Source of the DNA: a virus
Direction: 5' to 3' (one strand)
Virus record (IMG/VR): IMGVR_UViG_3300000976_000137
Coordinates: 1 to 50,995 of that record
DNA: 50,995 nucleotides
The number at the start of each line of letters is the position of its first letter. Position 1 is the stretch's first letter. Below, piece by piece: positions 5,945 to 41,578 of this stretch. Under the pieces are notes generated by a model. The model was not told where the DNA came from, did no database searches, and worked only from the letters and a program-made list of their open reading frames with translations. The position numbers and the translations under genes were made by a program.

Positions 5945-5975
5945 GAATGTAAATAAGAAGGATTAGAAGTGGGAT

Positions 5976-6710: not shown

Positions 6711-6789
6711 AATTTTAAATATTGTTCCCTTTCATTCTTACTTCTTAAAAGAAAAGAGTCGATTGAATGAGTGAGAGGATGAAAATAGA

Positions 6790-8253
6790 TTAAGATTTAA
6801 ACCAGGGTTGTTTTAAAGTCAGTTTCAAATAATTTTGACCATTGGAAAACCGTTTTCCCGTACCTGTTACAATAGCATCGACTATGCCTTTATGTTGTTT
6901 TCCTCCACGTCGAAACATAGAAAATTCTCTGGGCATGACGATGTAATGATAACTTTCTGAATGTCCTGCACTTGCTTTAAATTGCGACATATCAACCGAA
7001 CCAGAACCTAGAGAATGAATCCCCATGCCAATCGTTTTACTGGCAAATTCATTATTGATATAGTTATTTTGCGGTAAAAAGAACTTATGATTAGAAAGTG
7101 CAAAAAGGGCATTCACCTTTTCTTCTGCTGCTTTTCCTGTTCCTCCCATTTGGGCAAAAAGCGCACTAATATTTTGTGTCATCAAAATGCACCCTGCTCT
7201 CGACGAACGAGCAGTTGATAAAAATAACATATCATAGTTGTTAATGTAATGCTGATATTCATCCAAAAAAAGAATGACAGGATTAGGGCATTCATTCAAA
7301 TTTCGTGCTTCAATTTTCTTCTGTAAAATGTATTTGAACATCATTTGCGCCACTTTACCGCTATACTCATATTGCTGTATCGGTAGGTTTAATATCAATA
7401 TTTCTCCTTTCAATATGCCATCTAGGTCTAAGTTCGTACCACCACAAAAAATATTACTTAGCATGGGTGAGTTGATAAAAGGCTCTAAGATGGCACTTGT
7501 TAGACTCAAAATAGAGGACTGAGTACGGTCAGCCATAAAAGGTACTTCACGCACAAAGTAATTTTCTAAAAGCTTAAATTGGGGATGGTCTTCCCTTAAA
7601 TTTTCATGGGCTTTATTAAGCATTTGCCAGCAGAAAGAAGTTTTTTGCCAATCTTCATCTTCCAATTGTTCAGGCATTTGAGGGGCGCTACTATGAATTT
7701 TATGAAGTGTATGAATGTTAAGTTCTTCCCCTGATACCTGATTTAGCAAAATTAAACGATGCAATCTTTGGCGTTTAGCTTGTTCCCAATATTGCTCTGA
7801 ATCTTTTTTTGAACCTCCACCAAGTGATAAACCCGAAATGGTCATTAAGGCATCAACAGCTGTAATCGCCTCTTTTCCTTGATAATGATTCAGTAAATTG
7901 AAAACATCCTTATCGGTACTATTGACAATACGAATATCTTTCTCTCGTCCTTGTTTCTTTGCCCAACTCACAAATAAATCTAAATCGCTGGTTTTGTAGA
8001 GAAAAAATACCATACCGACCCTATCTTTTTCTGGTAGATGGTGAGCTTTTAGTAAATGGTTGACAAGATAATAAGCTAGTGTTGAGGTTTTGCCTGCTCC
8101 TGTAGAGCCTGTGACCAAAATATGCTCAAAAAAATCTTTCAATAATAGGTGGTCGTCTAAATGTTTGCTTCCCGTCAAATTGAGAATCGACCGTTCCATA
8201 TCTAATTTGGGCGGTGATACACCCAAATTGATAGCTTTTTTTAGAAAATTCAT
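6790..8253 (-). CDS. type IV coupling protein-like ATPase (VirD4/TraD/TraG family)
   Basis: 487 aa. Walker A 'GSTGAGKTS' and Walker B-like 'VILFLDEYQ'. Size and context fit a T4CP. No obvious N-terminal TM segments. Confidence 0.75.
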   Translation of the reverse strand: MNFLKKAINLGVSPPKLDMERSILNLTGSKHLDDHLLLKDFFEHILVTGSTGAGKTSTLAYYLVNHLLKAHHLPEKDRVGMVFFLYKTSDLDLFVSWAKKQGREKDIRIVNSTDKDVFNLLNHYQGKEAITAVDALMTISGLSLGGGSKKDSEQYWEQAKRQRLHRLILLNQVSGEELNIHTLHKIHSSAPQMPEQLEDEDWQKTSFCWQMLNKAHENLREDHPQFKLLENYFVREVPFMADRTQSSILSLTSAILEPFINSPMLSNIFCGGTNLDLDGILKGEILILNLPIQQYEYSGKVAQMMFKYILQKKIEARNLNECPNPVILFLDEYQHYINNYDMLFLSTARSSRAGCILMTQNISALFAQMGGTGKAAEEKVNALFALSNHKFFLPQNNYINNEFASKTIGMGIHSLGSGSVDMSQFKASAGHSESYHYIVMPREFSMFRRGGKQHKGIVDAIVTGTGKRFSNGQNYLKLTLKQPWFKS

Positions 8254-19829: not shown

Positions 19830-22800
19830 CTAATTATTGTAATAATCTTCTGGTAGCTTATCGCTTTTTTTCCGATTACAGTCTCTGCAAAGAATCTGTC
19901 GGTTATCAGAAGTTGTATTCCCCCCATGTTTTTTAGGGTAAATATGGTCATATTGAGCTTCATTACCAGGTGGTTTAACACCTTTTTGTGATTTCTTAGC
20001 ATCAACTAATTGTACATCACAATCGGCACATCTAAATTCTCCATCATTGTTCTTTATATTTTCTTGCTTGGCTTCACTTTTCTGCTTCTTTGTAAAACTC
20101 TTTCCTTCTTTAGGGCCTCCTTTTGACCCTGTTTTCATATTTACAATTGCATTATTGCCAGTAAGATTATTAAAGGCAGTAGTCGCAACACCAGCACTTG
20201 CAGCCGCTCCTGTACCAAGTGCAACTGCTGCACCCGCCCCAACTGGTCCGGTAACAGGGGTTGTTAAACTTGAGCCAGTAGCTGCAACTGTTCCCAAAAT
20301 CGTTCCCGCAGTTCCAGCAACTAAAGAAAGGACATCCCCTGTTTGTTGCCCTATTGCAGCTGCTTGAGCATATTTGCCAAAATCATTGGGGTTTCCTCTA
20401 GTACCAGGGAAATTACCCGTTAAGTTAGAGCTTATAGAATTAGCTACACCTGCTACAAATACAGCACTATTAATTAACGCCTCCTTACAAACTTCACAAT
20501 CACCATTTGGGTCATTGAATAAGACGGGATTATTCATCCCAAATTTGTATGGAGTCCAACCTGTAAACAATCCTGCTTCGGGGTCTACTTGCAACCAGCG
20601 AGCTGTTGTTGGATTGTAAGTTCGATATTTTGCAAAGTCTAAACCAAATCCAAAATCGGCATTTCTCTCAAAACCATTGAACAAATAATCGTAAGTGGGA
20701 TTAACTCTTAATCCTGATCCACGCTGTCTTAATCCATAAGGATAGTAGGATGATGTTTCAGATATTTCAGTATTATCAATTGTTCCATCTGTATTTTTAT
20801 CTGAGAATAGAACACGCTGATTCTTTAAATGATCTTTGATCGCATATTCGTAATATGGGGAAGAATTACCAAAAAATAAACGTCCTACATCAAAATAAAG
20901 TGCCTCTAACGTATCATTACTATATTCAATATCGTCAAAATAGTCTTGAGTTAGCAGAATAGTATCTACTAACTGGTTAAGCATATTTTGTTGCTTACCT
21001 GTTGTCTGTTTTTGTAATTTTTTACCTTCTCCATCATATAACCAATCAATCTTACTCCCATTGGCAAAGCTTACTTGATAGGGCAAGTTATGATAATTGT
21101 ATGATATTTGGATGCCTTTATTGGGGTCAATTGTTTGATTACCGTTGTTATCATAATCGTAATCGGCACTACTGCGTTGTACAAAACCATCGGTTTCAAA
21201 TCCACCTTGAGGGCAATTAGCTATTTTGGCAGTAAAAATAGCTCCTGACTTGGCATGAAATCCTGGTTTTAGAACGATGCTATCCCCAGCTTGATAGGTA
21301 ATCGCAGCATTAGCATTGACGACATTATTAGCTTCTAGCATTTCCTCGACAGCATGTAGCTGCGTATTATCCAAAGGATTATCTACTAATTTACTGGTTG
21401 GGCAGGGGGCAGTATCTGCTATCGCCTTCAGTCGATTAGTACCAGTAACATAACTATAACTTAAATTGTCTATTTGTTGAGTCTGTAAATTAGAACTATT
21501 TCCGTATAAGCCCCTTCTGGTCAAACTGTTAATATTCCCTCTTAAATCATAGCTATAAGTTGTCCCATAAGCATTATTATGGAGGTTATAATTAGCAGCG
21601 GTGAGGCGGTTTAAGAAATCATATTGGTAGTCATAGATTTGTGACTGTCCGTCTTTGAATTCCCATGTTAGGCTAGCGATATTGCCCTCATATTGTGGCG
21701 TAATGCCTTGGTCATAGGCTATTTGCAAAGAAAACAGGTCATCTGCTGCCATCGTTTCATTAATACCTTTAAGGAAACGATTTTCTAAGTAAGTGTAGTT
21801 ACATTCCTGTAAAAAACCGTTCGTTGTACCGCTTAAAAACTCCTTTAATAGTAAATCCTTATGATCATAGGCTTTTCGGCATAAATGCTGAGATGTACCA
21901 TTCTGTAGGTTGTGGTGAGTATCAATAGGTCTGCCTTGATGGTCATAGGATTGGGTAATGGTATCTCTTTGGCTATTAAAGGCACTAATATGATAACGCC
22001 GTCTGGTTTTGACCACGTTATCCAAGTAGTCATAATTCATGAAACGTTGCAATAAGCCATTTCGATGATTATTCCCCGAATCAGTAATCATTCTGCCAAA
22101 ATCATCATAAAAATAGAAACGTTCTATGAAGGTATTGCTTACTTGATTGCCATTTAAAACGTAGTTGTTAAGCGCTGTTAATCGCCCGATGTCTATTGAT
22201 GGGTTGGTAAACCCTGTGAGAGAGTTGTTTGGTCTTAAACCATCATAGTAATTTTCCGTCCAAACCTCGTTAACAGTCGTTGGCGTTGTATTTAGTCCTG
22301 TTTTTGTAACCCTTCCATATACATCATATTGGGTTATCATCCATTTTCCGTCAGTCCGTAAATTGCCATCTTGAAAGGCGATAGGTATATTTCTTGGCTC
22401 ATAGACCAAGGTTGTTTTTTCCTTGTCGGGTATTTTGATTTCTAGCTTATTATCTTCCCCAGAGTAGAGGGTCGTAAAAATCAAGTTAGCATCCGTAGCA
22501 CTTGCCGCAGGAGGGATAATGATGGTTTCTCGCTCTTTTTTATCATAAATAGTGTAGGTACTGGTCTGACTACTACCCGACTGGTTCTGTTGTCTAAGTA
22601 AGATAGGTTTTCCTCGTTTATCAGATAGTATAGTGCTTCTATCGCCCGTCTGTGTACTACTTCCATCTGGCTCAATCGTAGTGATGGTATTGAGTTCTCC
22701 GATGGCGTAAGTAATAGAAGTGCCAGGAACAGTAATTGCCGTTTGATTACTCCCATACAACGTATGCGTGGTATACCAGTCAGGCGGTGTAACTGCTACG

Positions 22801-25800
22801 GGGCGATTAAGTGGAGAAACTTCATATTGCGTAACAGTAAAAGCAGTTCCATTAGGTACGGTTCTAAACGAACCGTTACTTAAAAGGCTTTCAAAAGGCT
22901 CATAAGCCATTGCTACCCTACTTTGATTATCATAACTGACGGCGGTAATAATATCTTTGGGGTCAGCCGCATCGGGTGAATGTTTGATTTGATTGGTCTG
23001 CAACAGCCGTCCCAATCCTCCTAAATACTGTCTAGTTTCGATGGCTTGCAGCGCACTTAGATTCAACCCATCAGGTTGAAAAGTGACTTTTTGATTAATG
23101 AAATTATGCGTATTTGTCCCATCTTGGTATTGGTAGCTGATGTCTGTAAGTACGTTGCCATCCCGCTCATTAATCTGGATTAACCGCATCAAGGGATCAA
23201 AGTCAAAATCTGTGTCCTGTGCATCTATATCAATGGTTTCACTTGCGATCCTTGTTCCCGTAAAATAGTTTGCCACCCATTGAAAATTCTCAAAAGTTCG
23301 AGTTTTAATCTGCTTATTGATGGCATCGTAGGTATAAAATTCTGTTTCCCATCCTTTACTTGTCGAATTGGCAGGTCTGCCTACTGCCATATTATAAGCC
23401 CCGTGATGTTCTAGCGTATCCCATCCACTATTTGGACCTGTTACTTGTAGATTGCCACCAGCATCCCAAGTCATTTCATAATCTTCAAAAAGATAAGGGT
23501 AAATCGGGTCTAAACCACTACCGCCTCGCAGTCCAAAATTATCAAAGAAATCACAGTTGAGCCGTTGCCCCTTTGTTTGCAAGGCTGTTCCATTTTCTTC
23601 TACTTTATGAATCGTTTCAATAGGGGTCGCAATTTGATTACGAGCTACCATTGAATCATAAACCGTCTGGGTAAAATCAAAGGGGTAACGATGTTCGGTG
23701 ATAAATTTTAAATCATCCGAATTGGTCATGCTTACACCAACAGGTGCTAAGTGACGGTTAAGATTGTCATATTCATACACCATCTGTGTACTCACCCCAT
23801 CCCGAAAACTGGTCACGACTGATTTTTGAAACTGATTAGGAGAGATATTTTGATAGGTGCGATGAAAATACCAAGTTTGCTGTCCACAAACAATGGGAGG
23901 AGCTGTCTTAATAATAAGATTCGGTGAATTAGTGCTAATAATCGTTCTAGGCGTTACTGCCGACTGATTCACCAGCGTCGCTTGATTAGCTTCTACCTTA
24001 AATGCACTTGTTCTATCCGACTTTCCTTTATACACATTGAGTTGTGCAGGTGGTCGAGGAAACTGATTAACAAAATTAAAAATGGGGTCAAAGCTACCAA
24101 AGAAGGTATAGGTATTATAGCCATTATCCGACTCACTATTGCCTAGTATCTCTCTAACGTTTTGGTATCCTAACGAAATTCCGTCATAGCCCCCTAGCGG
24201 AACGATGCTATTATCGGTAAAATAAGCGGCTTCAACCGCCCCCTCCACCAATCCACCTGCAGTAATAGATTGTCCATCAACAAAATAAGCATATCGGGGA
24301 ATTTGGTATAAAATTCCACTTGATTCATTCGGTAGATTCTCGTTTTTATACTCAAAAGTTTTGATAACATCAGGATTGAGATTCTGTCCATCCTTAGCCG
24401 TTATTTTTCGGATGCGGAGTCCACCAGCAGGACGAGTGGCAAAAAACTCATCTTGAATGGTAAAGAGGGCAAACCGAGCCTGTCCATTATTGCTACTGAC
24501 CTCAAAGATATAAGGTACATTGAGGCTTAACGCTCCCAAGTTTGTTAAAGGAACGTCATCTCTTATTTCAAATTGTTGGCTGCTATTGAGATTAAAACTA
24601 TAAAAGCCTCTTTGAATGGGGTTATTCGGGTCGGTGACTTCTAAGGCTCGAATATTTAAAGTGGGTAAGGGCAAATTACAATCAATGCTACCGTCCCCTG
24701 CATCATCTACTATTTTGGTCAAAACAGCGGTGAAATACGCTCGGTCTATTTCTCCTTGGGAAGTAAAAGTGTAAGGCGTGATAGTGGTTTCATCATGCGC
24801 TCCACAGCATTGTAATTCTAACGGATTGGGACAGCTTCTAATTTCTGGTACTAAGGTAGTTTCCTCTCCTTGAATTTGTCCGTAATAATCATTGAGTTCG
24901 TATTCAAATTCAACGCTTCCCCCCAATGGGTTATTGATTTTTGTTAAAATGCCATATTGGGTATGGGTTAAACTAGGATTCCGATTTGCTTGTCCTTCGA
25001 TTAAGATTCTCCCGTTGGGAAGGGTCAATCTGGTATCTTCGGGTAGGTTAATGGGTAAATTATTATTGGTGAATTGCCCATTGAAGAATCCCCATTCATC
25101 GGTTGCCTTATCTAGCCTTTGAGGCAAATAAGGTGACCCATCAGTATTCAGAGGTCCATCATATTCAAAACTGTAAGGAGGGATTTCAATATAAGTACCT
25201 GTGCAGGAAACTTCTTGTACTGATAAGAGCCGAAGTCGCTTCGATTCGGAGCGCTGATTGACGGGAAAAGCGGGGTCTTTGAAATAATCGTAGGCAAAGC
25301 GAAAGCGTTTACAGAATTTGGTGCCGCTACTAATCGAAAGGGAATCCAAACGGTAGGAAGTGCCATTGACATCTTCTCTAGCTGTGTTGGCAGCAAAAGT
25401 AATTGTTTCGGTAGGGCTTGTAATGGTGGCGAGGCGCAATCCTCTGGTTACTTGGGTGGTCGTAAAAAAATGATTGGCATCATAAGAAGAGCCCACACAG
25501 CTTTGACTTGCAGACCACCCACTATACCCCACACCGCCACAACCTGTATAATTAATCTGGCAAGAGGAAGGAGTTACGTAGCTGTAATTTTCTGTTTGAT
25601 AATCTAAGGTGATATTATCGATGCCATCATAAGACTGAATGCGCAGCAAGTACCAAGAAGAAATCCGCTCCATGTCTCCTTGATTAATGGTTCTTTCTTG
25701 GGCAACTCGATTATCGGTCGGGTCTTGGCCAAAAAAGTATTTGGTGCCATCTTTGTCGATAATGGTAAAACCTAAAAATGGTCCATTATTTTCGGTGGAT

Positions 25801-26348
25801 TCAACTAGCTTTAAATCCTGCTTAGGCACAAACTCAACCATACCAGGTCCATCTCCTGTAAAATAAAAGCGTCCAGAGGTGCCATTGGGAAGGGAAAAAC
25901 TAAAGAGATCTGGTTCTTCATCACGAGAATTGATAATCGCTTCAAGTTGATTGTCTTCAAGAAACTGTCCATTGCGATAATAGCCTAGGGCATCATCATC
26001 GGCACGATCGAGGATGGTACGAGTAATCATTCCCCCTGCACTTAGATCCCAATTCCCCGTCCACGAACTCAAAGTGGCCAGTTTGATACCTGCCGAGTGA
26101 TAGCTCAACGAAATGGGTAAACTGACTTTGCCGTCTGATACCGTATATAACGGAATAGTATTGTTTGAAATGCCTGTAAAATAAGAAACGGGTACATCCA
26201 CATATTTGCCAAAAGAAGTAGCAGAGGGCGTAGGCATGACTACATCTCCTACATGGCTATTGGTTGGTTGTGACCATCCATTTTGTGTATGAATTAGGAG
26301 GCTTAATCCTAAAAAAAGGAAACGATTTACAAGAGAGAGCTGATTCAT
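19830..26348 (-). CDS. RHS/YD-repeat polymorphic toxin with C-terminal HNH nuclease domain
   Basis: 2172 aa with the signal peptide 'FLFLGLSLLIHTQNGWSQ' and many YD-type repeats. The RHS core ends at 'RYTYNPTTARWLQVDPEAGL...NDPNGD' (about 20499..20513). A Gly/Ala-rich linker follows, then the HNH motif 'YDHIYPKKHGGNTTSDNRQILCRDCNRKKSD' (19860..19955). Confidence 0.9.
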   Translation of the reverse strand: MNQLSLVNRFLFLGLSLLIHTQNGWSQPTNSHVGDVVMPTPSATSFGKYVDVPVSYFTGISNNTIPLYTVSDGKVSLPISLSYHSAGIKLATLSSWTGNWDLSAGGMITRTILDRADDDALGYYRNGQFLEDNQLEAIINSRDEEPDLFSFSLPNGTSGRFYFTGDGPGMVEFVPKQDLKLVESTENNGPFLGFTIIDKDGTKYFFGQDPTDNRVAQERTINQGDMERISSWYLLRIQSYDGIDNITLDYQTENYSYVTPSSCQINYTGCGGVGYSGWSASQSCVGSSYDANHFFTTTQVTRGLRLATITSPTETITFAANTAREDVNGTSYRLDSLSISSGTKFCKRFRFAYDYFKDPAFPVNQRSESKRLRLLSVQEVSCTGTYIEIPPYSFEYDGPLNTDGSPYLPQRLDKATDEWGFFNGQFTNNNLPINLPEDTRLTLPNGRILIEGQANRNPSLTHTQYGILTKINNPLGGSVEFEYELNDYYGQIQGEETTLVPEIRSCPNPLELQCCGAHDETTITPYTFTSQGEIDRAYFTAVLTKIVDDAGDGSIDCNLPLPTLNIRALEVTDPNNPIQRGFYSFNLNSSQQFEIRDDVPLTNLGALSLNVPYIFEVSSNNGQARFALFTIQDEFFATRPAGGLRIRKITAKDGQNLNPDVIKTFEYKNENLPNESSGILYQIPRYAYFVDGQSITAGGLVEGAVEAAYFTDNSIVPLGGYDGISLGYQNVREILGNSESDNGYNTYTFFGSFDPIFNFVNQFPRPPAQLNVYKGKSDRTSAFKVEANQATLVNQSAVTPRTIISTNSPNLIIKTAPPIVCGQQTWYFHRTYQNISPNQFQKSVVTSFRDGVSTQMVYEYDNLNRHLAPVGVSMTNSDDLKFITEHRYPFDFTQTVYDSMVARNQIATPIETIHKVEENGTALQTKGQRLNCDFFDNFGLRGGSGLDPIYPYLFEDYEMTWDAGGNLQVTGPNSGWDTLEHHGAYNMAVGRPANSTSKGWETEFYTYDAINKQIKTRTFENFQWVANYFTGTRIASETIDIDAQDTDFDFDPLMRLIQINERDGNVLTDISYQYQDGTNTHNFINQKVTFQPDGLNLSALQAIETRQYLGGLGRLLQTNQIKHSPDAADPKDIITAVSYDNQSRVAMAYEPFESLLSNGSFRTVPNGTAFTVTQYEVSPLNRPVAVTPPDWYTTHTLYGSNQTAITVPGTSITYAIGELNTITTIEPDGSSTQTGDRSTILSDKRGKPILLRQQNQSGSSQTSTYTIYDKKERETIIIPPAASATDANLIFTTLYSGEDNKLEIKIPDKEKTTLVYEPRNIPIAFQDGNLRTDGKWMITQYDVYGRVTKTGLNTTPTTVNEVWTENYYDGLRPNNSLTGFTNPSIDIGRLTALNNYVLNGNQVSNTFIERFYFYDDFGRMITDSGNNHRNGLLQRFMNYDYLDNVVKTRRRYHISAFNSQRDTITQSYDHQGRPIDTHHNLQNGTSQHLCRKAYDHKDLLLKEFLSGTTNGFLQECNYTYLENRFLKGINETMAADDLFSLQIAYDQGITPQYEGNIASLTWEFKDGQSQIYDYQYDFLNRLTAANYNLHNNAYGTTYSYDLRGNINSLTRRGLYGNSSNLQTQQIDNLSYSYVTGTNRLKAIADTAPCPTSKLVDNPLDNTQLHAVEEMLEANNVVNANAAITYQAGDSIVLKPGFHAKSGAIFTAKIANCPQGGFETDGFVQRSSADYDYDNNGNQTIDPNKGIQISYNYHNLPYQVSFANGSKIDWLYDGEGKKLQKQTTGKQQNMLNQLVDTILLTQDYFDDIEYSNDTLEALYFDVGRLFFGNSSPYYEYAIKDHLKNQRVLFSDKNTDGTIDNTEISETSSYYPYGLRQRGSGLRVNPTYDYLFNGFERNADFGFGLDFAKYRTYNPTTARWLQVDPEAGLFTGWTPYKFGMNNPVLFNDPNGDCEVCKEALINSAVFVAGVANSISSNLTGNFPGTRGNPNDFGKYAQAAAIGQQTGDVLSLVAGTAGTILGTVAATGSSLTTPVTGPVGAGAAVALGTGAAASAGVATTAFNNLTGNNAIVNMKTGSKGGPKEGKSFTKKQKSEAKQENIKNNDGEFRCADCDVQLVDAKKSQKGVKPPGNEAQYDHIYPKKHGGNTTSDNRQILCRDCNRKKSDKLPEDYYNN

Positions 26349-29647: not shown

Positions 29648-30766
29648 TTAATTAATTGAATTAGAAATAGAAAATCTTTTTTTGTAAAATTCATTGTATT
29701 CATGTTTTAATCTACCTAATGGAATTGCTGGATGTATATTTATTTCATTAGCAAAACTGATAATTGTTTCACTTGAAAACTCTTCAGTTTTCTCAATAAA
29801 TTTTTTCCATTTTTTCTTGGGAATTAAATGATTTTCGGCAAAAATATTCGCTTCTTTTTCCTTGGAAGCCTGATTTCCTTTATTTCCAGCTATATCATCT
29901 ATGAAAGGAATTTCATTATTTTTATTTGGTTCTAAATGTCTATAAATATGTCCTAATTCATGAAAAAGCGTAAATGCTAGGTTATCTAAACGCTTGTGCC
30001 TGAGAGTAAGACCAATAGCAGGGTTATCCTTACTCCAAAAAGCAATACCATCTACTGGCACTTGGTCGGCTCTCGGTTCTATAATTAGTTTGATACCATA
30101 TTTGGGTAAAATTTTCTCCAGATTATCAACTATTGACTCGCCTAGAAATACACTTTTCAATTTCTCAATCAATTCTGATTCTGATTCTCGATTAAATGCT
30201 TCGATTTTTTTTAATTTGCTAGCCTTGTATTCCACATACTTAACCCAGCCTAGTAAGTTAACTGGATTTACTTTTAAAACAGGAGATTTTTTAAAATTCT
30301 TATAGGTAGCACTTTCCAATTCCATTTTTATTTCATTGGCACTTTTTACTCCATATATCGTAAAAAGGAAATCTATATCTTTTTCTAGAATATTGGATAA
30401 TTTCTTTAGTTTTTTGAAATAGTTTAAAGCTACGTATTGTTTTAAATCAACCCATTTTCTAATTATAGAAACTTTTTTTTGCAGGTTTTTGTCAAGATTT
30501 GCTTTAGCCAGTTCATAATTAGACTGGAGATTAATCCAGTAATCTTTATCTATACCTAAAGCAGCTTCTAGGATAATAGCTAATTCAGTCGAAATACCTC
30601 TTTTTCCCTTTATAATCTCATTGAGTTGAGAATGTGCCATACCAATGGTAATAGCGAATTCTCTTTGCTTTAAATCTTTCTTATCTAAAATGTCTTTCAA
30701 ATATTCTCCAGGGGGAATTGCTATTGCAGGAGTTAATTTATTGATAACTTTTCCTTGTGCATCCAT
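29648..30766 (-). CDS. HigA-type HTH antitoxin fused to an ImmA/IrrE-family metallopeptidase domain
   Basis: 372 aa. N-terminus 'IPPGEYLKDILDKKDLKQREFAITIGMAHSQLNEIIKGKRGIS' (HigA-like HTH). C-terminal region 'TLFHELGHIYRH' (HExxH, COG2856-like). Confidence 0.8.
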   Translation of the reverse strand: MDAQGKVINKLTPAIAIPPGEYLKDILDKKDLKQREFAITIGMAHSQLNEIIKGKRGISTELAIILEAALGIDKDYWINLQSNYELAKANLDKNLQKKVSIIRKWVDLKQYVALNYFKKLKKLSNILEKDIDFLFTIYGVKSANEIKMELESATYKNFKKSPVLKVNPVNLLGWVKYVEYKASKLKKIEAFNRESESELIEKLKSVFLGESIVDNLEKILPKYGIKLIIEPRADQVPVDGIAFWSKDNPAIGLTLRHKRLDNLAFTLFHELGHIYRHLEPNKNNEIPFIDDIAGNKGNQASKEKEANIFAENHLIPKKKWKKFIEKTEEFSSETIISFANEINIHPAIPLGRLKHEYNEFYKKRFSISNSIN

Positions 30767-33398: not shown

Positions 33399-35222
33399 AT
33401 GGATATTCAACCATTAAAAGTCGATGACTTTATTCAAGAGGTGAAGCCTATTTTAGATACTCTAAGAAAAAATGTAGCACAAAACAATACAGAAATTCGA
33501 GTCTCAGATATATTCGATAAAGCAGGTAATCAGTATATTAATCTGGTTCAAGAAGGAGGTGGGCTATTAGGAATTGCTTTAGTTGGATTCACCTATGTTT
33601 TGGAAGAAATGGGCATTCGTTTCTTGAGTTTGGGAGGTACTTCTGCAGGTGCAATTAATACTATTTTTTTAGCTGATGTCGATAAACCTGCAAATAAAAA
33701 AAGTCTTGCAATTTTAAAGAAAATTGCAGGTTTTGATTTTATGCAATTTGTAGATGGAGGCAGACGTGCTAAATGGCTGGTTAATGCAATGGCTAAGGAA
33801 AAAACAGCACTAACCTACTTGTTAGCGGTAATGAATGCACCTAGATTGTTTCAGAAAAAAGGGATTAACCCAGGGACTTTTTTTGAAGACTGGTTAGAAA
33901 AAGAATTAAAGCACAAAAGGTTAGATGCCTTAGACAAGAACATAAAAGATATTCCTGACTTAATCTTAAAAGATGACTACGGGAAGGAAAGAAAGTTAGA
34001 CCCTAAAAAGTTGGCTATTAAATTAGCTATTGTAGCTGCGGATATTACTACGCAAACAAAGGTAGAGTTTCCCAAAATGGCTGAGTTGTATTTAAGAAAT
34101 CCTAAAGTCGAAAGCCCTGCCGCTTTTGTTAGAGCCTCGATGTCAATTCCTGTATTTTTTGAGCCCAAACAATTTAATCTTTCCTCTTTTACTGGTGGGA
34201 AAAAAGATTTTTATCAAGAGAGATGGAAAGCTTTAGCTGATTTTAGGTCTTCTCAACTTCCCGAAAGTGTACAGATGGTAGATGGTGGCGTGATGTCTAA
34301 CTTTCCTATTGATTTATTTCATACAGAAGACACCATTCCTTTGCGACCAACTATTGGTGTCAAATTGGGGATAGATCGGTATAATTTTAAAAAACATGGT
34401 GGCTTATTTAAATTTGCGGGGAATATTTTTGACGGAGTACGGAATTTGAGAGACCATGAGTTTTTAAAAACGAATCAGGAATATCAAGAATTAGTTGAAC
34501 ATATCAATATAGATGATATTAATTGGTTGGATTTTAACCTATCCAACGAAAATCAACTAAGATTATTTAGAGAAGGGGCGGTTGCTGCACAAAATTTTCT
34601 TAACCGTTTTAATTGGACGAATTATAAGAAGCGTTTAAAATCAGAGCTAATTCAGCGCATCAAACCACTTACTTGGGAGTTGTCTAATATTGATGATTTA
34701 GAAGGGGTATTAGAGGTTTTCAAAATAGAAAGAGGCACCCCACTTTTTGAACGGATACAGGAAATAAAAAAACGACCTGAGCCTTATAAAGTGCTTTGGG
34801 TAGATAACTCATTTACCTATACCTTGCCTATGGCTATTTTAGATAAGCTCAATATTTCTTGTATTACTGCTAATAGCTCCGAAGAAGCCTTTGATATTAT
34901 TGATGAACACGATGATATTGACTTAATTATCTCTGATTTAACCAGAGACAATAGCAATATAGGAGGTATTACACTTTGCCAGCGGCTGGCTTTAGATCCT
35001 AAGGCTAAAAATATCTCCGTATTAATTTACGTCCATAGTCAATCAAGTTTAAAAGAAAGATATTTTAAACATTTAAAGGAAACTAATGATTCTATAATCA
35101 GGTCTATCCGTTCTCCTGAAGAAGTAGAATTACCCAAAAATATAATTAATAGTATTGGTAGAAATACTGTTAGTCATAAAGAGTTTATCATGGAGGTTGT
35201 AGAAAATATTGATAAAAGCTAA
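33399..35222 (+). CDS. patatin-like phospholipase with C-terminal receiver(REC)-like domain
   Basis: 607 aa. Oxyanion 'QEGGGLLG', nucleophile 'GTSAG' and catalytic Asp 'VDGGVMSNFP'. The C-terminal 'KVLWVDNSF...DIDLIISDLTRDNSNIGGITLCQRL...ISVLIYVHS' looks CheY-like but lacks the usual acidic pair. Confidence 0.8.
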   Translation: MDIQPLKVDDFIQEVKPILDTLRKNVAQNNTEIRVSDIFDKAGNQYINLVQEGGGLLGIALVGFTYVLEEMGIRFLSLGGTSAGAINTIFLADVDKPANKKSLAILKKIAGFDFMQFVDGGRRAKWLVNAMAKEKTALTYLLAVMNAPRLFQKKGINPGTFFEDWLEKELKHKRLDALDKNIKDIPDLILKDDYGKERKLDPKKLAIKLAIVAADITTQTKVEFPKMAELYLRNPKVESPAAFVRASMSIPVFFEPKQFNLSSFTGGKKDFYQERWKALADFRSSQLPESVQMVDGGVMSNFPIDLFHTEDTIPLRPTIGVKLGIDRYNFKKHGGLFKFAGNIFDGVRNLRDHEFLKTNQEYQELVEHINIDDINWLDFNLSNENQLRLFREGAVAAQNFLNRFNWTNYKKRLKSELIQRIKPLTWELSNIDDLEGVLEVFKIERGTPLFERIQEIKKRPEPYKVLWVDNSFTYTLPMAILDKLNISCITANSSEEAFDIIDEHDDIDLIISDLTRDNSNIGGITLCQRLALDPKAKNISVLIYVHSQSSLKERYFKHLKETNDSIIRSIRSPEEVELPKNIINSIGRNTVSHKEFIMEVVENIDKS

Positions 35223-35286
35223 TTATCATTTGAGTGCGCTACAGTTTAGTGGGTTTTAAATATGTTCAAACATTTAGTTCTCCTGA

Positions 35287-35534
35287 AATTAATGGGTATT
35301 ATCGAACAAAAGGCAAATTTGTCCCACAGGCTTAATTTTCATCGAAAACGGCTATAAAAATAGACTATGGTGATAACGAACGTTAAAATTATAGGATAAG
35401 ACCATACAAAACGCTCATGTATCGCTATGAAATTATTATGGTTTTAGTCCAAAATTTGCCTTAAAACCATAGCATTGTCGGCTATATTTAGTTATGGGAC
35501 ATTTCCGACTTTTGTGCGATATTACCCAATTAAT
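35287..35534. mobile_element. MITE-like element: 234 bp with 34-bp imperfect terminal inverted repeats and a 7-bp AATTAAT target duplication
   Basis: Terminal inverted repeats at 35294..35327 and 35494..35527 match at 26 of 34 positions and have GGG/CCC termini. 'aattaat' lies directly outside both ends (35287..35293 and 35528..35534). An internal 10-bp-stem hairpin spans 35437..35471. No ORF. Confidence 0.5.
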
Positions 35535-35756
35535 CTAGCATTTATATATTTACATGATGTTAAATTTTATTCCAAGTCATTTATCATATAGAGTGGAACG
35601 ATATGAGTCTATGATATAAAGATTAAGTAATTCTTTCTAAGGTTGTTATTTTTGTAAAGAGAGTAAGATTGCTTATGTGAGGTTCTTTCTAATGGTAGAT
35701 GTTATGATTTTTAATTAACTAAGAATTTTTTATTCCTAATAGAAATGGGGGAATGA

Positions 35757-36314
35757 TTAAAACATAGTTACATAATAGGTAATAGCTACAGTTAGAATAA
35801 TAGTAAAAAAAATAAATAGAATAAGATTAATTATTTTAATATTAATAGCTTCTTTTTCCTGTAATCTAGCTAATTCTGCTTGTTCGCACTTATCTAAAAG
35901 CAGGGGAAGAATTGCTTCTAGCCTTGATTGAGAATTTTCTGGAGATTCAGCTTTTACAGCTACCAATATATCTATTATTAAATCGTTGAATAGCTCTTCT
36001 ATTTGTTGTAAATCATTATCAGATGCCATTCCAATCCAGCCAAAGAAGTAGTTTGCTTTTCTTTTAGAGGAAGTTTCCAAACTATAATTGACAGCCTCAA
36101 GTGGTAGAACAGGTCTAGACCTAACGACATAGCCTAGTTTTTTCTCTTTTGGAGAAACTTTGAATTGGTTTATAGCAATTCTCTCAGAGAATGAACCATT
36201 TAGATAATATTTAGCTAAACCTGTAGGTGTTCTATCACTTGCAATCAAAATGGCTGAATAGCCATCTTGAAGACCTGCAATAATAAAAGGTATTTTTGAA
36301 TCTAATTTTATCAT
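35757..36314 (-). CDS. tail-anchored protein, possibly Roadblock/MglB-like (speculative)
   Basis: 185 aa with the C-terminal TM segment 'INLILFIFFTIILTVAITYYV'. The N-terminal 'IPFIIAGLQDGYSAILIASDRTP' is faintly Roadblock/LC7-like. Last gene of the GTPase operon. Confidence 0.5.
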   Translation of the reverse strand: MIKLDSKIPFIIAGLQDGYSAILIASDRTPTGLAKYYLNGSFSERIAINQFKVSPKEKKLGYVVRSRPVLPLEAVNYSLETSSKRKANYFFGWIGMASDNDLQQIEELFNDLIIDILVAVKAESPENSQSRLEAILPLLLDKCEQAELARLQEKEAINIKIINLILFIFFTIILTVAITYYVTMF

Positions 36315-36438
36315 TCTAGTTGGTCTTTTTAGTTTGAATTATGCATAATGATAACTGATTTGTAATTTTTATTATTTTGAGGTGACGAATATTTATATGC
36401 TATATGAAGGCAATTGCAATTTTTTTGCCATATTTAAT

Positions 36439-37431
36439 TTATTTTAATATGTAGTCATAATTATCTTTCATATGGCTTACAAAATTAGCAATATCGTTCT
36501 GTACAAAGTTAGAATGGTAAAATATTTTGATTTCTCTACCTTTGGGAAACCATTTTGCATTTTTCATTTTTATTTTTATTCCTTCAGTAAAGTCTCTTAA
36601 TATTTTTTCATTTACGTCGTCTTTTTCCCATAAGTCTTTTTTATTAATAAAGATGCAAATGCCCTTAATTATGTGGTCAATTTCTGTGTATTTATCATCC
36701 AAATAACCTATAATCTCATCAGCAAAATATTCATGTTCTTTGAGTCTAGCTTCGTTAATAGCTGATGAATTGTTAGATTCATTGTGGTCTAAAAATAGAC
36801 AAATAAAACTTTTGTTAATTGCTACTTTGAATTGTTGGAAAAAAACTTGTCCTTTTCCATCAAATAAATTTACTCTTTTTCCTATTTCAATTATCCAGGT
36901 ATGCTTTGATAGTTCAGTTGTAGAAATAGGGGCTTTCAAGTTTAATAGTTTTGTTATCAAAGTACTTTTTCCAACCTTACTTTTTCCTATGAAAGCTATC
37001 TCAGGATAATCTTTTTGTTCTGATTCTATTTCTTTCTTGTCTTCCGTTTTTAGATTATTGTGAGACGGCTTCAATATGAGTACAAACAATCTTGCAATAG
37101 CTGCTAGAAAAGGAAAAGCTAGAATCCAAGCTTCATTGGAGTTGAGAGTTTCCTTTGTAAAGAGGAAAACACAAAGACTTGTGGTAGTAATAAGAACAAT
37201 TACACATATTACCAAAATGATAATTTTGTAAACCTTTTTATTATCATATCTATTTAAAAAAAGACTAGCTATTATTCCTATGGTAATCAATGATAGTCCC
37301 CATTGATAATAACTATTGCTATCTTGTTTTAGTATCCACCCAATAGCTGTAACAATGAAAGTAAGTATTCCTAGTACATCAGCTATGAGTCCTATTTTCT
37401 CGAATAGAATTTCTTTTTTGTCTCTTGTCAT
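36439..37431 (-). CDS. membrane-anchored small GTPase (about 4 N-terminal TM helices plus a Ras-like P-loop domain)
   Basis: 330 aa. G1 'GKSKVGKST', G3 'LFDGKGQ' and G4 'INKKD'. Four hydrophobic helices lie in residues 10..125. Confidence 0.7.
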   Translation of the reverse strand: MTRDKKEILFEKIGLIADVLGILTFIVTAIGWILKQDSNSYYQWGLSLITIGIIASLFLNRYDNKKVYKIIILVICVIVLITTTSLCVFLFTKETLNSNEAWILAFPFLAAIARLFVLILKPSHNNLKTEDKKEIESEQKDYPEIAFIGKSKVGKSTLITKLLNLKAPISTTELSKHTWIIEIGKRVNLFDGKGQVFFQQFKVAINKSFICLFLDHNESNNSSAINEARLKEHEYFADEIIGYLDDKYTEIDHIIKGICIFINKKDLWEKDDVNEKILRDFTEGIKIKMKNAKWFPKGREIKIFYHSNFVQNDIANFVSHMKDNYDYILK

Positions 37432-37468
37432 TTGTATAAAATTTTGAGTTAATATTAGTTTTTTATTT

Positions 37469-38377
37469 TTAGTCTTCTAGAGACAACTTAGCGAATGTCA
37501 GTAGCTCAGAAATTGCCGAGTTTCGGTCTATTCTAGATAACGAAGAAATTAACCCTACATTTAATATTTGTGCTTCTTCATTTGCAATATGAGTAGGTAG
37601 CATAATTTTTTTGAACATCAAAGCTTTAGGTTGGTTTGAAGCCTCTTCATTGCACATATTATTATTTATAGATGAAGATGAAGATAGTATAGATAATAAA
37701 TCTAGATTTTTGTTACAATAATTTTCTATAGTTTTTTCTTTAGTGTTTACTCTAATTTCAATTGTGACATCACTATTTGATGTCTTCTTTGCTGTAATGA
37801 TAAAACCTTCTGAGAGTTTAATAATTTCTTTTTCTACTTTATCAGTTGCTTGAATAATTATTCTTGACTTTTTTGGAAGATTGAATTTGATAGATTTGTC
37901 TCTAAAAACTATAGTATCTGTCTTTCTATTTGTTAGTTCGTCTTTACTTGGTATGTAGATTTTATCTCCCCTTCTAATGTCTACTAAATCATTACTTATA
38001 GTCCTGTCTAGAACTAAATTTTTATAACTATTATCTTTTTCTCTCTTTTTTGTTGTGAATGAAATTATAGATTGATACATATATGAATGACCATATTCTT
38101 TTTTGGAGATACTTGATAAAGTTTCTCCTCTATTCTCTATAATGTAATCTCGGCCTTTAACTATATAAGAGGAATCTTCAAATATCTTAGATTCCAAAAT
38201 TTCTTTTTCTCGTAGGCTTGATATTTTAGAAGGAGAAATTGAAATAACATTGTCTCTTTCTGGGGTTAATTCTGAGTTCTTTTTTTTATTAAAAAGGTAT
38301 ACAAGCCATGCCGCACAAGATAGAATGACAATAGAGAGTATTGTTGTAAGTATCTTTGAAGATAAAATAGCTTTCAT
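37469..38377 (-). CDS. single-pass membrane protein with LysM-like segment
   Basis: 302 aa with the N-terminal TM segment 'ILTTILSIVILSCAAWLVYLF'. 'YIIENRGETLSSISKKEYGHSYMYQSI...DIRRGDKIYIPS' resembles LysM. Confidence 0.5.
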   Translation of the reverse strand: MKAILSSKILTTILSIVILSCAAWLVYLFNKKKNSELTPERDNVISISPSKISSLREKEILESKIFEDSSYIVKGRDYIIENRGETLSSISKKEYGHSYMYQSIISFTTKKREKDNSYKNLVLDRTISNDLVDIRRGDKIYIPSKDELTNRKTDTIVFRDKSIKFNLPKKSRIIIQATDKVEKEIIKLSEGFIITAKKTSNSDVTIEIRVNTKEKTIENYCNKNLDLLSILSSSSSINNNMCNEEASNQPKALMFKKIMLPTHIANEEAQILNVGLISSLSRIDRNSAISELLTFAKLSLED

Positions 38378-38399
38378 AAGTATAATTTTAAGTTAAAGA

Positions 38400-38407
38400 C
38401 AAACATA
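38400..38407 (-). promoter_or_regulatory. Bacteroidota-type -7 box TAnnTTTG for the GTPase operon
   Basis: The minus strand reads 'tatgtttg', 22 nt upstream of the ATG at 38377. Confidence 0.4.
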
Positions 38408-38793
38408 ATACATTTTTCTGCTAGTAAAAATTATATGTAAAGAATTTTTGTGGTGACATTTTTTATATTCTCACGTCACGCAGGTTTTCCCCATTTCATA
38501 CTGCTTTTATTTGCTCCTGTCCGCTTTTGATTACCAAAGTAGGACAGGATAGCCCTGCCCTACCCTTTCAGCCTTTATCTCCAAACTTGTCTATTTCACT
38601 AGATTGTCCTGCTTTCGAAACTAGGATGACTTGAAAATTACTGTCTTAAAGGGGGGCAACAGGGATAACTAAAGGACTGAAAACTAGCCTTTTTATTGCT
38701 GCGGGTTTGGTGTCTTAAAAAGAACTGGTTTTGGGATATGAGTTTTGTTGTGGCTGCATGCTATTATATTGATTCTTCGGTTTATGTCGGTTT

Positions 38794-38838
38794 GCTAAAA
38801 CGTTAATATGGGCTACGTACACATATTAACGTTTTAGC
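38794..38838. terminator. perfect 17-bp-stem hairpin just downstream of the 429-aa gene
   Basis: 'gctaaaacgttaatatg' pairs with 'catattaacgttttagc' around an 11-nt loop, 6 nt from the stop at 38845. The T-tract is on the plus side only. Confidence 0.55.
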
Positions 38839-38844
38839 CATTTT

Positions 38845-40134
38845 TCATTGAAATACAGAAGCGGGTTTCATTGGTTTAATTATGACTTGACTATTCGTTC
38901 TATCATCAAGTATTTTGAAATACTTATTTTCCGTTTTTGAATTAAAAATTTCCGTGTAACCGTCTAATGTTTCAATTTCAATCGTAAACCCAATTGTATT
39001 TTTTGTGAGTGGAATTCTCACATCCTTTATCCAAGTTATTTCCCCAGTCTTAAAATTTGGTACTTTTTTCTCTACTGTTGGCATAGTAAAAGTTTTATAT
39101 GATACCCAACCGTCGATGTTTTTTCTTGCCAAGTTAGACCATGCCGTTTTTGCCAGCAATTTCAATGTAAACCCTGCATCTGAAACATTAACAAATTCCC
39201 AAGGACTATTTTCTTCTCTTCTTGTTACATGAAATACAGTTGATGATTGGATTAACTTATGTCCTGTTGGAACAATCGTCGGATAATTACATGTTTCATC
39301 GCTCCTTCTTCCACTTCTACATTTATAATGATGAGGAGGCTTAGGAGTATGATGCGAATGTTCTTTTCTATTTTTAGATTTCTCAGTAATTCCTATCCTA
39401 TAAGTTCCCATTACTTTTGGTAATGAGAACAAAGGGATTTTAAATTTTCTTTCTTCGTAGTTAGGAAATACTAATAGTTTTGTTGTTTTGTGAAATACTA
39501 CTAAATCTACCGTTTCAGTTTTTATTTTTTTCTTTGGATTACTAAATTTCTCCAACGGTATATTGAATTGAAGGGTGCTTGACCCAGATTGAATAGGTTT
39601 TATTTTTTCACCATTTACAATTAGGAATGGTTCATATTCATCCCCATATATATGAAGTCTACTTCCGTATATTGGCAGGCTCACGTTATCTTCATTTGAT
39701 AATTTTAAGAAATGAACTTTATCTGGTTTCCTAACTCTTGGAAACTTTTCAAAAAAAGGAATTCGAGAAATTGATTCATCCAAATTATCTGTTACGACCT
39801 GTATTTCTTTTACCGTTTTATACAGTCCATTATTGAGGTTATTTATTAGTTTGTCTAAATCAGTAAATACTCTTTGTTGAGTTATATCTAGTTTATCAAA
39901 AGTTTCATTCATTGATTTTGAATATGCTGCTTTTAAATTTTCTATTTGAACTTGGACTTGTTGAGAACCAACCATTATTGTTGTTCTTGCTTCTTCACCT
40001 GCCTTTTCAATTAAATTTTTTCCAGCTTGCTCTAATTTAGAAATTGCTACACCAATGGACAAACCCCCAAATTGACTGTAGGTAATATTATTAATGGTAA
40101 AAAAGATGATGATTAGAATGATGTTTCTTTTCAT
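38845..40134 (-). CDS. secreted hypothetical protein
   Basis: 429 aa with the signal peptide 'IILIIIFFTINNITYSQ'. No domain recognised. AT-rich. Confidence 0.6.
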   Translation of the reverse strand: MKRNIILIIIFFTINNITYSQFGGLSIGVAISKLEQAGKNLIEKAGEEARTTIMVGSQQVQVQIENLKAAYSKSMNETFDKLDITQQRVFTDLDKLINNLNNGLYKTVKEIQVVTDNLDESISRIPFFEKFPRVRKPDKVHFLKLSNEDNVSLPIYGSRLHIYGDEYEPFLIVNGEKIKPIQSGSSTLQFNIPLEKFSNPKKKIKTETVDLVVFHKTTKLLVFPNYEERKFKIPLFSLPKVMGTYRIGITEKSKNRKEHSHHTPKPPHHYKCRSGRRSDETCNYPTIVPTGHKLIQSSTVFHVTRREENSPWEFVNVSDAGFTLKLLAKTAWSNLARKNIDGWVSYKTFTMPTVEKKVPNFKTGEITWIKDVRIPLTKNTIGFTIEIETLDGYTEIFNSKTENKYFKILDDRTNSQVIIKPMKPASVFQ

Positions 40135-40726: not shown

Positions 40727-41578
40727 ATGGCAAAAAAGAAAACGATTAATGTTCAAGGTAATGAAATAAGCCTTATCACTCAAGGAGATGAAGAATATAT
40801 CAGCCTTACGGATATGGCTAAAGGCTTTGAAGGGGAAGCAGGAGAGTATATTAGAAATTGGTTGCGGAATAACTCAACTGTTCGTTTCTTAGGTGTTTGG
40901 GAGAAAGTACATAACCCTAATTTTAATTTGGTGGAATTCCACCAAATTAAAGCTGAACTGGTAGATAACACTTTTCTTATGTCTGTTAAGAAATGGATAG
41001 CACGGACTAGTGCTATTGGTATGCAAGCACGAGCGGGTAGATATGGAGGTACTTATGCTCATAATGAGATAGCTTTGCAATTTGCAACATGGTTAAGCCC
41101 TGAATTTCATGTTTATCTTGTAAAAGAATTCAAAAGATTAAAACAGGATGAGGCAATACGACTTGGTTTACAATTTGACCTAAGACGAGAATTGACCAAG
41201 ACCAATTATGCATTACAGACGGATGCGATTAAGGCAATGCTTGTTCCTGATAAGGTGAAAGGTACGAAAGATGCCAGCCCATTTTATAGCAATGAAGCGG
41301 ATTTACTTAATGTAGTTGTTTTTGGCGATACAGCAAAGGGATGGAAAACTAAGAACCCAACCTTAAAAGGCAATATGCGTGACCATGCTACGATTGAACA
41401 ACTAATGCTTCTTCTTAATATGGAGGTACTAAATGCGACGATGATACATTGGGAATGGACACAGGAAATGCGGTTGGAAGTGTTACATAAAGAATCTAAA
41501 CGGCAGATGCCAACGATATTAAGGAGTGCTGCAATGAAGAGAATTAAGTCTAATGGAAAGAAGAAATTAAAATCGTGA
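40727..41578 (+). CDS. KilA-N domain DNA-binding protein
   Basis: 283 aa. 'INVQGNEISLITQGDEEYISLTDMAKGFEGEAGEYIRNWLRNNSTVRFLGVWE' is the typical KilA-N N-terminus of Bacteroidota mobile elements. Confidence 0.8.
   Translation: MAKKKTINVQGNEISLITQGDEEYISLTDMAKGFEGEAGEYIRNWLRNNSTVRFLGVWEKVHNPNFNLVEFHQIKAELVDNTFLMSVKKWIARTSAIGMQARAGRYGGTYAHNEIALQFATWLSPEFHVYLVKEFKRLKQDEAIRLGLQFDLRRELTKTNYALQTDAIKAMLVPDKVKGTKDASPFYSNEADLLNVVVFGDTAKGWKTKNPTLKGNMRDHATIEQLMLLLNMEVLNATMIHWEWTQEMRLEVLHKESKRQMPTILRSAAMKRIKSNGKKKLKS

Follow-up and report, generated by a model that had tools for sequence, protein, structure and literature searches.

What does a predicted membrane-anchored small GTPase do in an AT-rich patch of a mobile element, and which of the adjacent genes belong with it? 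The question is raised by positions 35757 to 38377 of the IMG/VR record IMGVR_UViG_3300000976_000137. The entire stretch of DNA that was analyzed, positions 1 to 50,995 of that record (50,995 nucleotides [nt]), is referred to here as the window. A preliminary description of the locus, made from the sequence alone, interpreted it as a three-gene operon built around the GTPase. Three open reading frames (ORFs), here named g1 to g3, are indeed found on the minus strand, with the GTPase motifs and transmembrane (TM) segments reported at that time:

37469 to 38377, minus strand: g1, ORF of 302 amino acids (aa), an orphan with an N-terminal TM segment or signal anchor
36439 to 37431, minus strand: g2, ORF of 330 aa, predicted membrane-anchored GTPase of the TRAFAC class, core component
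35757 to 36314, minus strand: g3, ORF of 185 aa, predicted tail-anchored partner, second core component

Given the calculated stop frequency of approximately 0.08 per codon, ORFs of 185 to 330 codons at 29% GC cannot be of chance origin.

By sequence comparison, the conserved unit appears to consist of two genes, not three. We conclude that g2 and g3 almost certainly constitute a conserved, co-inherited, horizontally mobile two-gene cassette, and the functional unit is redefined as g2 plus g3, with g1 being optional. Genomic context was recovered for approximately 10% of the g2 family members through contig look-ups, one genome scan, one metagenome scan, one viral scan, and one annotated record, with the scans using alignment subsets built around the motif H[FL]xLNK[RK]DL. 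In each of the 17 independent loci with available downstream DNA, the GTPase gene is directly followed by a g3 homolog. The encoded downstream partners are 177 to 224 aa long (122 aa in a truncated copy from Acidipila), carry a C-terminal TM anchor, and are homologous to each other. The paired loci come from at least four phyla, spanning Alpha- and Gammaproteobacteria, Bacteroidota, Cyanobacteria, and Acidobacteriota, and their hosts include Brucella, Pinirhizobacter, Acinetobacter, a metagenome-assembled genome (MAG) of Saprospiraceae, Scytonema, Cyanobium, and Acidipila. In 14 of 16 cases, the two genes overlap by up to 34 nt or are at most 5 nt apart, the exceptions being the window (124 nt) and Scytonema (235 nt). 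Pairwise identities of the GTPases and of their partners are correlated (r = 0.645), a value reached by none of 5,000 Mantel permutations. Finally, a profile built from nine partners, with the window sequence left out, matches g3 at an E value of 6.8e-21 and no other ORF in the window. Thus, g3 as the conserved partner of g2 is borne out by the 17 loci, by the profile match, and by the co-inheritance. The expectation that the trio as a whole would recur in other genomes fails, as g1 has no homolog beside any of the 17 related pairs and the pair alone is conserved.

Searches of Pfam, NCBIfam, PADLOC, and the PDB revealed no family that covers the g2-g3 pair and matched neither protein to a housekeeping pathway or to a described system, in agreement with the preliminary description, and a full-text literature search revealed nothing on a TM-GTPase paired with a tail-anchored protein. 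Pfam, NCBIfam, and PADLOC all lack a model of the partner family, which makes the pair invisible to the current annotation and defense-finder pipelines.

The features of g2 that are relevant to its assignment are as follows:

37072 to 37395, minus strand: four predicted TM helices (residues ~13 to 120), from hydropathy and the structural model
36961 to 36987, minus strand: G1/P-loop motif GKSKVGKST (residues 149 to 157); GxxxxGK[ST] is present in 94% of the family
36847 to 36861, minus strand: G3/Walker B motif DGKGQ (residues 191 to 195); D[GA]xG occurs in 90% of the family, with G194 invariant
36634 to 36645, minus strand: G4 guanine-specificity motif NKKD (residues 263 to 266), extended to NKxDLW

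Word-indexed homology searches with g2 and g3 returned only self-matches. The relatives of g2 came to light when 1.84 billion cluster representatives (50%-identity clusters) were searched exhaustively with HMMER, which yielded 184 clusters at an E value of 1e-3 or below and 57 at 1e-10 or below; on this count, the g2 family is rare. NKxD is found in 95% of the family members and NKxDxW in 94%. In an alignment of 61 sequences, the invariant or nearly invariant residues (window numbering) are G149, G154, K155, T157, T172, D191, G194, Q200, D215, H216, R229, N263, K264, D266, W268, S307, and N308, and the window protein retains the switch-I Thr and all of the family-specific motifs, namely, QQF, (L)DHN, R..H..F, and HSN. 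The three G motifs recognized in the preliminary description are thus present and have been kept across the homologs. The Pfam model MMR_HSR1 matches g2 at 27.3 bits (gathering threshold, 21.9) and 52 of the 61 family members. An AlphaFold model built on an 8-sequence alignment (overall predicted local distance difference test score [pLDDT] of 62.7, with 65 to 85 in the G domain) has the canonical small-GTPase topology, b1-a1-b2-b3-a2-b4-a3-b5-a4-b6-a5, and its Foldseek comparison with the PDB retrieves only generic TRAFAC GTPases (ERAL1/Era, G-alpha, EF-Tu, Der, and Arf; E values of ~1e-5). With G1, the switch-I Thr, DxxG, and NKxD all present in this order, the sequence and the model identify g2 as a P-loop GTPase of the TRAFAC class, whose G domain retains every element for guanine-specific nucleotide binding and hydrolysis.

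The approximately four N-terminal TM helices that had been noted in g2 are seen in the hydropathy scan as well as in the AlphaFold model, where they comprise residues 3 to 35, 42 to 59, 66 to 95, and 101 to 119. Most of the relatives are shorter, 260 to 290 aa, and consist of a hydrophobic hairpin of approximately 50 residues (two TM segments) followed by a G domain of approximately 180 residues. Since the P-loop starts at residue 149 in g2 versus ~95 to 105 in most members, and since the homologs align to g2 only from residue ~44 to 110 onward, that is, from the third TM helix, TM3 and TM4 would correspond to the two-TM hairpin of the typical members and TM1 and TM2 would represent an extra N-terminal pair. 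The N termini and inter-helix loops of the GTPase are positively charged; by this positive-inside distribution, g2 is predicted to be an inner-membrane protein with its G domain in the cytoplasm. Accordingly, the part of the earlier interpretation that described an envelope-associated GTPase holds for g2, as a predicted membrane-anchored GTPase with conserved G motifs, and the part that described a three-gene system does not.

The partner, g3, has been anchored at its C terminus in both analyses:

35766 to 35837, minus strand: C-terminal TM anchor of g3 (residues ~160 to 183), from hydropathy

All aligned partners share a hydrophobic C-terminal segment. The stretch before the anchor is rich in Arg, so the rest of g3, a domain of approximately 155 aa, is probably cytoplasmic. 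The residues invariant among the partners (window numbering) are F10, G14, L23, S26, R85, W93, G95, D115, and C143. The resemblance of the N-terminal part of g3 to Roadblock/LC7 (MglB-like) domains, which had been proposed with low confidence, was not supported by any sequence or profile test. Thus, Pfam searches with nine partners gave no relevant match, including none to Robl_LC7, longin, or SRX, and only three isolated single-member matches with E values from 0.023 to 0.16 (DUF4505, X-Tfes_XVIPCD, and DUF6041). The partner profile matched only designed helical proteins, and nothing relevant, in the PDB at E values of up to 10, and PADLOC models gave no relevant match for g3 and eight other partners. 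In hhalign comparisons of the partner with LAMTOR2 and DYNLRB1, with both sequences confirmed in the PDB, the probability was 0.1%.

The third gene of the trio, g1, and a further ORF upstream of it have a different status:

38845 to 40134, minus strand: g0, 429-aa orphan with an N-terminal signal-like segment, GC content of 31%, and GC content at third codon positions (GC3) of 22%
37949 to 38146, minus strand: LysM-like segment of g1 (residues 78 to 143; GETLSSISKKEYG...YQSI ... IRRGDKIYIP), below the threshold and with a long insertion

The description of g1 as a single-pass membrane protein agrees with the single N-terminal hydrophobic segment in the hydropathy scan. Neither g1 nor g0 has homologs in the related loci of the 17 pairs, and each forms a singleton cluster in the protein collection. 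Each related locus has different genes upstream of the GTPase. Searches with g1 gave no hits in PLSDB (tblastn) and no Pfam matches, and the only PADLOC match was to PDC-M63A (E = 0.007). By these comparisons, g1 is probably lineage specific and lies outside the conserved unit. The LysM-like segment noticed earlier is a weak candidate: three weak, subthreshold matches, to NCBIfam PRK11198 (LysM; E = 0.037), to a Pfam-verified LysM protein (BLASTP, E = 0.003 in a single pairwise comparison), and to the PDB entry for Kbp (7pvc; E = 1.4), fall on the same 25 to 30 residues. All of them are confined to residues 78 to 105; to accommodate the second half, approximately 25 residues would have to be inserted. 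The Pfam LysM model (PF01476) has no match to g1 at an E value of 1 or below.

The arrangement of the genes is as previously reported, with gaps of 37 nt between g1 and g2 and 124 nt between g2 and g3 and a 467-nt spacer upstream of g1 (38378 to 38844), and the GC content within the window is lowest in this block (28.6 to 28.9% GC in the 1-kb bins of positions 35001 to 38000). The GC content is 28.4% in g1, 28.9% in g2, and 30.8% in g3 versus 35.8% in the whole window; across g0 to g3, it is 28 to 31%, with a GC3 of 18 to 23%. Given that g0 has the same low GC and GC3 as g1 to g3, the AT-rich block at ~35.7 to 40.1 kb may have been acquired as one piece. Two transcription-related features were located on the same strand:

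38400 to 38407, minus strand: TATGTTTG (TAnnTTTG), candidate -7 box of the Bacteroidota type, 22 nt before the ATG of g1
38794 to 38838, minus strand: perfect 17-bp hairpin, terminator-like, directly after the g0 stop codon, separating g0 from g1 to g3

The TAnnTTTG box reported 22 nt upstream of g1 is in place, and its position alone is suggestive. Its mere presence is not significant: the octamer occurs in the window no more often than expected (74 matches versus 69 ± 8). No terminator-like sites were detected on the minus strand within the g1-g3 unit. The 37-nt gap, the lack of such internal sites, and the hairpin closing off g0 indicate that g1 is probably co-transcribed with g2 on this plasmid. 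The gap between g2 and g3 (36315 to 36438; 124 nt, 24% GC) follows two further minus-strand TAnnTTTG boxes, 36480 to 36487 and 36504 to 36511, within the 3' end of g2, which could serve as a separate promoter for g3. The claim that the operon is flanked by an element resembling a miniature inverted-repeat transposable element found no support in the window: neither spacer has a second copy in the window, and the one at 35223 to 35756 (534 nt) contains only a weak 17-nt inverted repeat. An Rfam scan of the window and the spacers gave no matches, and the 467-nt spacer folds no better than shuffled sequence (z = -0.46).

The genomic neighborhoods of the related pairs show the pattern of a small mobile cassette. 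In one locus, the pair adjoins CBASS (cyclic oligonucleotide-based antiphage signaling system) genes encoding Cap15, CD-NTase, and Cap2; in single other loci, it adjoins a type I restriction-modification (R-M) HsdR gene together with a resolvase, another resolvase, a TIR_2 protein, or an HATPase_c_3/HSDR_N_2 protein. On the predicted viral contig IMGVR_UViG_3300031151_000028, the pair lies approximately 300 nt from the start, with genes for a large serine recombinase and a C5 DNA methylase downstream of it; such a contig-edge location is typical of prophage accessory genes. Elsewhere, the pair follows dxs, an FtsJ/S4-domain methyltransferase gene, and a tRNA (U5)-methyltransferase-like gene and precedes a racemase gene (Brucella), adjoins HemD (Scytonema), or follows prpBC-acnA (Acinetobacter). 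One locus (L007, 521 to 1930) encodes an HTH-M78 regulator directly upstream of the GTPase pair, and the window encodes a protein combining HTH_3 with Peptidase_M78 (ImmA/IrrE-like) at positions 29648 to 30766 on the minus strand, 5 kb from the cassette, which could be either a coincidence or a recurring regulator. A different kind of association is seen in the 413-aa metagenomic protein P0057, which combines DUF4062 (E = 2.3e-17) with the family G domain and has no TM hairpin. DUF4062 has been described as a TIR-like NADase of antiphage systems (2026 preprints); those DUF4062 defense preprints whose text is accessible make no mention of GTPases.

Two loci contain incomplete copies. In the Acidipila MAG (positions 5785 to 6947 of the locus), the pair is degraded, with a split GTPase match and a partner ORF of 122 aa; evidently, the cassette can decay, as expected of accessory genes. 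In the record labeled "Acinetobacter phage MD-2021a" (CAKLQH020000009.1), the GTPase is truncated at the N terminus (207 aa, no TM segment) and the partner is still found downstream. This record also carries prpB, prpC, acnA, and fabB and is therefore evidently a bacterial chromosomal contig; the "phage" matches in INPHARED are just two records of this one mislabeled Acinetobacter assembly.

Among the systems described so far, the nearest relative of the g2 family by sequence appears to be DO-GTPase2 (PF19993), and it is a distant one. DO-GTPase2 belongs to the GTPase-centric conflict systems (Kaur, Burroughs, Iyer & Aravind, eLife 2020, PMC7159879), in which the DO-GTPases are defined by a Walker B Glu, approximately 13% of them carry TM segments at the N terminus, and which are reported to be nearly absent in cyanobacteria (PMC7159879). 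The two families share the TRAFAC-class GTPase, the mobile neighborhoods, and a dedicated partner encoded just downstream. Weak Pfam matches to DO-GTPase2 are seen in 31 of the 61 g2 family members; in a set of 10 members, one scores 30 bits (gathering score, 27) and the others score 20 to 26 bits or not at all. These matches extend over no more than the C-terminal half of the model, and g2 itself has none at an E value of 1 or below. Furthermore, the g2 family has an Asp in the Walker B motif (hhhhD-G-x-G; D191 in at least 90% of the 61 sequences) instead of the Glu, its partner is a tail-anchored protein of 177 to 224 aa with no Pfam match, among nine partners, to GAP1 (the GAP1-N, -M, and -C domains) that accompanies DO-GTPase2, the GASH or FNIII component of the DO-GTPase2 systems is not seen in the annotated flanks, and the family is represented in cyanobacteria. 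By the PF19993 score, the Walker B residue, and the GAP1 and GASH/FNIII components, g2 would thus not be assigned to DO-GTPase2.

The combination of a small G domain with a small dedicated partner encoded beside it is also reminiscent of MglA-MglB, Rag-Ragulator, and SR-beta/SRX. SR-beta, too, is tethered by an N-terminal TM helix, and a few g2 family members have weak matches to SRPRB, Arf, Ras, or Roc. In contrast to MglA-MglB and SR-beta, both g2 and g3 are predicted to be membrane anchored and the partner has no detectable Roadblock or longin similarity; the DHN, R..H, DLW, and HSN motifs are not Ras-like, and Foldseek does not single out a specific subfamily. Eleos (LeoA/LeoBC) is an antiphage system with a bacterial dynamin-like GTPase, in which defense is abolished by P-loop mutations (Millman et al. 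2022, bioRxiv 10.1101/2022.05.11.491447). By analogy, g2 and g3 might likewise provide GTPase-dependent, membrane-associated defense from adjacent genes. The PADLOC matches of g2 to LeoA (E = 2.2e-4) and LeoBC (E = 5.8e-4) are restricted to residues 131 to 190 around the P-loop, and no full-length match that would indicate membership in Eleos was obtained. Whereas dynamin-like proteins have at least 550 to 600 aa with stalk and paddle domains, the proteins here have 270 to 330 aa and a minimal G domain, and their partner is not a GTPase. RexA/RexB is a membrane-acting abortive-infection pair. Its likeness to g2-g3 would be a functional analogy only, in that both are two-gene units on mobile elements that couple a cytoplasmic sensor or switch to TM segments; the sequences are unrelated, and here the GTPase switch is covalently joined to the TM segments. 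No known or candidate system of PADLOC-DB v2.0 was found to cover g1, g2, or g3, and a literature search for GTPase-based defense systems with TM components identified only Eleos and the DO-GTPase systems.

How, then, might the pair work? We infer a GTP-switched membrane conflict module that acts in abortive infection or exclusion, a proposal for which we see the balance as even; a role of the cassette in conflict of some kind is mildly favored. In this scheme, g2 and g3 would form a membrane complex, with the GTPase as the nucleotide-dependent switch. The partner would regulate or sense, either as a GTPase-activating protein (GAP)-like subunit or as a trigger-binding one, as suggested by its invariant Arg and WxG motif. 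The effector role would fall to the N-terminal module of the GTPase; this role of the TM hairpin is suggested by P0057, which carries DUF4062 in its place. Immune systems typically exchange N-terminal effectors while the NTPase stays constant. Upon activation, the TM hairpins and the partner anchor would oligomerize and compromise the membrane, which would protect against phages or other DNA invaders in the manner of abortive infection or exclusion. Membrane permeabilization as the effector step is tentative, and we would sooner bet against it. The more general formulation, an undescribed prokaryotic immune family with a membrane-tethered GTPase of Ras size as the switch, a partner serving as a regulator or sensor, and an exchangeable N-terminal effector (the hairpin in most members, DUF4062 in at least one), is possible, although we incline slightly against it. 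As for g1, it would be an unrelated membrane-anchored orphan placed upstream under a shared promoter, providing a local input or being mere cargo.

Several observations weigh against this proposal. No recognizable effector domain is found in g2 or g3, membrane disruption is purely what we infer, and the DUF4062-GTPase fusion is a single case. Recognizable genes for defense or recombinases are present in only approximately 6 of the 17 neighborhoods, and several neighborhoods are ordinary housekeeping contexts. The three viral-contig scans gave one locus in total, with two of them coming out empty, and tblastn searches of PLSDB with g2 and with the family member P0024 returned nothing (nor did a megablast search of PLSDB with the region). 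With 19 to 27% identity to all others, the window copy diverges more than any other member, and its unusual 124-nt gap means that the pair may be regulated differently here. The single-sequence model of the partner is poor (pLDDT of 48.6).

The roles entertained in the preliminary description were defense, exclusion, or signaling, with sensing of cell wall or membrane perturbation as the input. A conflict role is plausible from the neighborhoods, and cell-wall sensing is unsupported in the core pair, as the positive-inside rule predicts a cytoplasmic location for both globular domains, with no more than short loops in the periplasm. The fullest version of the sensing idea, a three-component envelope sensor of cell-wall damage with g1 as the LysM-like peptidoglycan reader, g2 as the switch, and g3 as a Roadblock-like regulator, appears improbable. 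It would account well for the co-oriented trio with its short g1-g2 gap, the single promoter-like box upstream of g1 and the uninterrupted stretch downstream of it, the low GC and GC3 that g1 shares with g2 and g3, and the LysM-like matches, weak yet repeated. However, none of the 17 related loci has g1, which forms a singleton cluster in the protein collection, the Roadblock similarity of g3 is undetectable, the Pfam LysM model does not match g1, and the charges flanking the g1 TM segment do not clearly put the bulk of the protein in the periplasm. A non-conflict role would likewise require the pair to serve the cell itself, as an SR-beta- or Arf-like tethered GTPase with its receptor subunit, in protein targeting, membrane remodeling or repair, or envelope-stress signaling. 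Weak Pfam matches to SRPRB (6 of 61), Arf (11 of 61), and Dynamin_N (11 of 61), one member named "signal recognition particle receptor" by the Joint Genome Institute (JGI), and the several loci among housekeeping genes all point in that direction, but the family is very rare (the 184 clusters mentioned above), is scattered across phyla, and has no conserved flanking genes, being inserted between unrelated genes in each genome. This insertion pattern is the opposite of what a housekeeping function would produce, and no curated NCBIfam or Pfam family fits beyond the generic G-domain models, so we rate this role as equally improbable.

The same mobility is compatible with a cassette that merely maintains itself, akin to a toxin-antitoxin or addiction module, with one membrane protein being toxic and the other neutralizing it, which would stabilize plasmids or islands with no antiphage role. 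We regard this as unlikely. The unit is compact, its two genes often overlap, its distribution is patchy with recombinases adjoining it, it is plasmid-borne here, and the Acidipila copy is decaying, all of which would suit an addiction cassette. Nevertheless, a GTPase of 270 to 330 aa with fully conserved guanine-binding motifs is atypical of known toxins and antitoxins, and the DUF4062-GTPase fusion and the CBASS, R-M, and TIR neighbors suit immune systems better; besides, addiction and an immune role are not mutually exclusive. Entry exclusion was also considered and set aside because the pair occurs on chromosomes away from transfer genes.

If the pair indeed serves in immunity, the known bacterial defense systems would gain a minimal GTPase switch embedded in the membrane; among them, the GTPase-based ones that we found described are only the large dynamin-like Eleos and the multicomponent DO-GTPase systems. 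It would also offer a simple two-protein model for a small G domain gating a membrane effector. In eukaryotes, GTPases associated with membranes, such as GIMAP, IRG, GBP, and Mx, take part in immunity, and a compact bacterial counterpart to these immune GTPases would be of comparative interest.

The window that carries the cassette looks like a Bacteroidota plasmid. Its Rep3 initiator has its best match in a Haliscomenobacter plasmid (36.7% identity), and it also encodes ParA, a TrwC relaxase, a type IV secretion system (T4SS) coupling protein, and a protease with a type IX secretion system (T9SS) sorting tail. The cassette is located between the genes for a patatin-like protein and a KilA-N protein, and a further large gene lies at some distance:

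33399 to 35222, plus strand: patatin-like phospholipase, 607 aa, convergent with g3 across the 534-nt spacer
40727 to 41578, plus strand: KilA-N domain protein, 283 aa, matching the PADLOC candidate PDC-S22 nearly end to end (E = 1.6e-110)
19830 to 26348, minus strand: 2,172-aa protein with DUF6443 and a C-terminal HNH nuclease, from domain matches

With the KilA-N protein being 2.3 kb from g1, this region of the plasmid may represent a small defense island. The C-terminal part of the patatin-like phospholipase has weak NCBIfam matches to the response-regulator receiver, and the 2,172-aa protein looks like an Rhs/YD-type polymorphic toxin carried by the plasmid.

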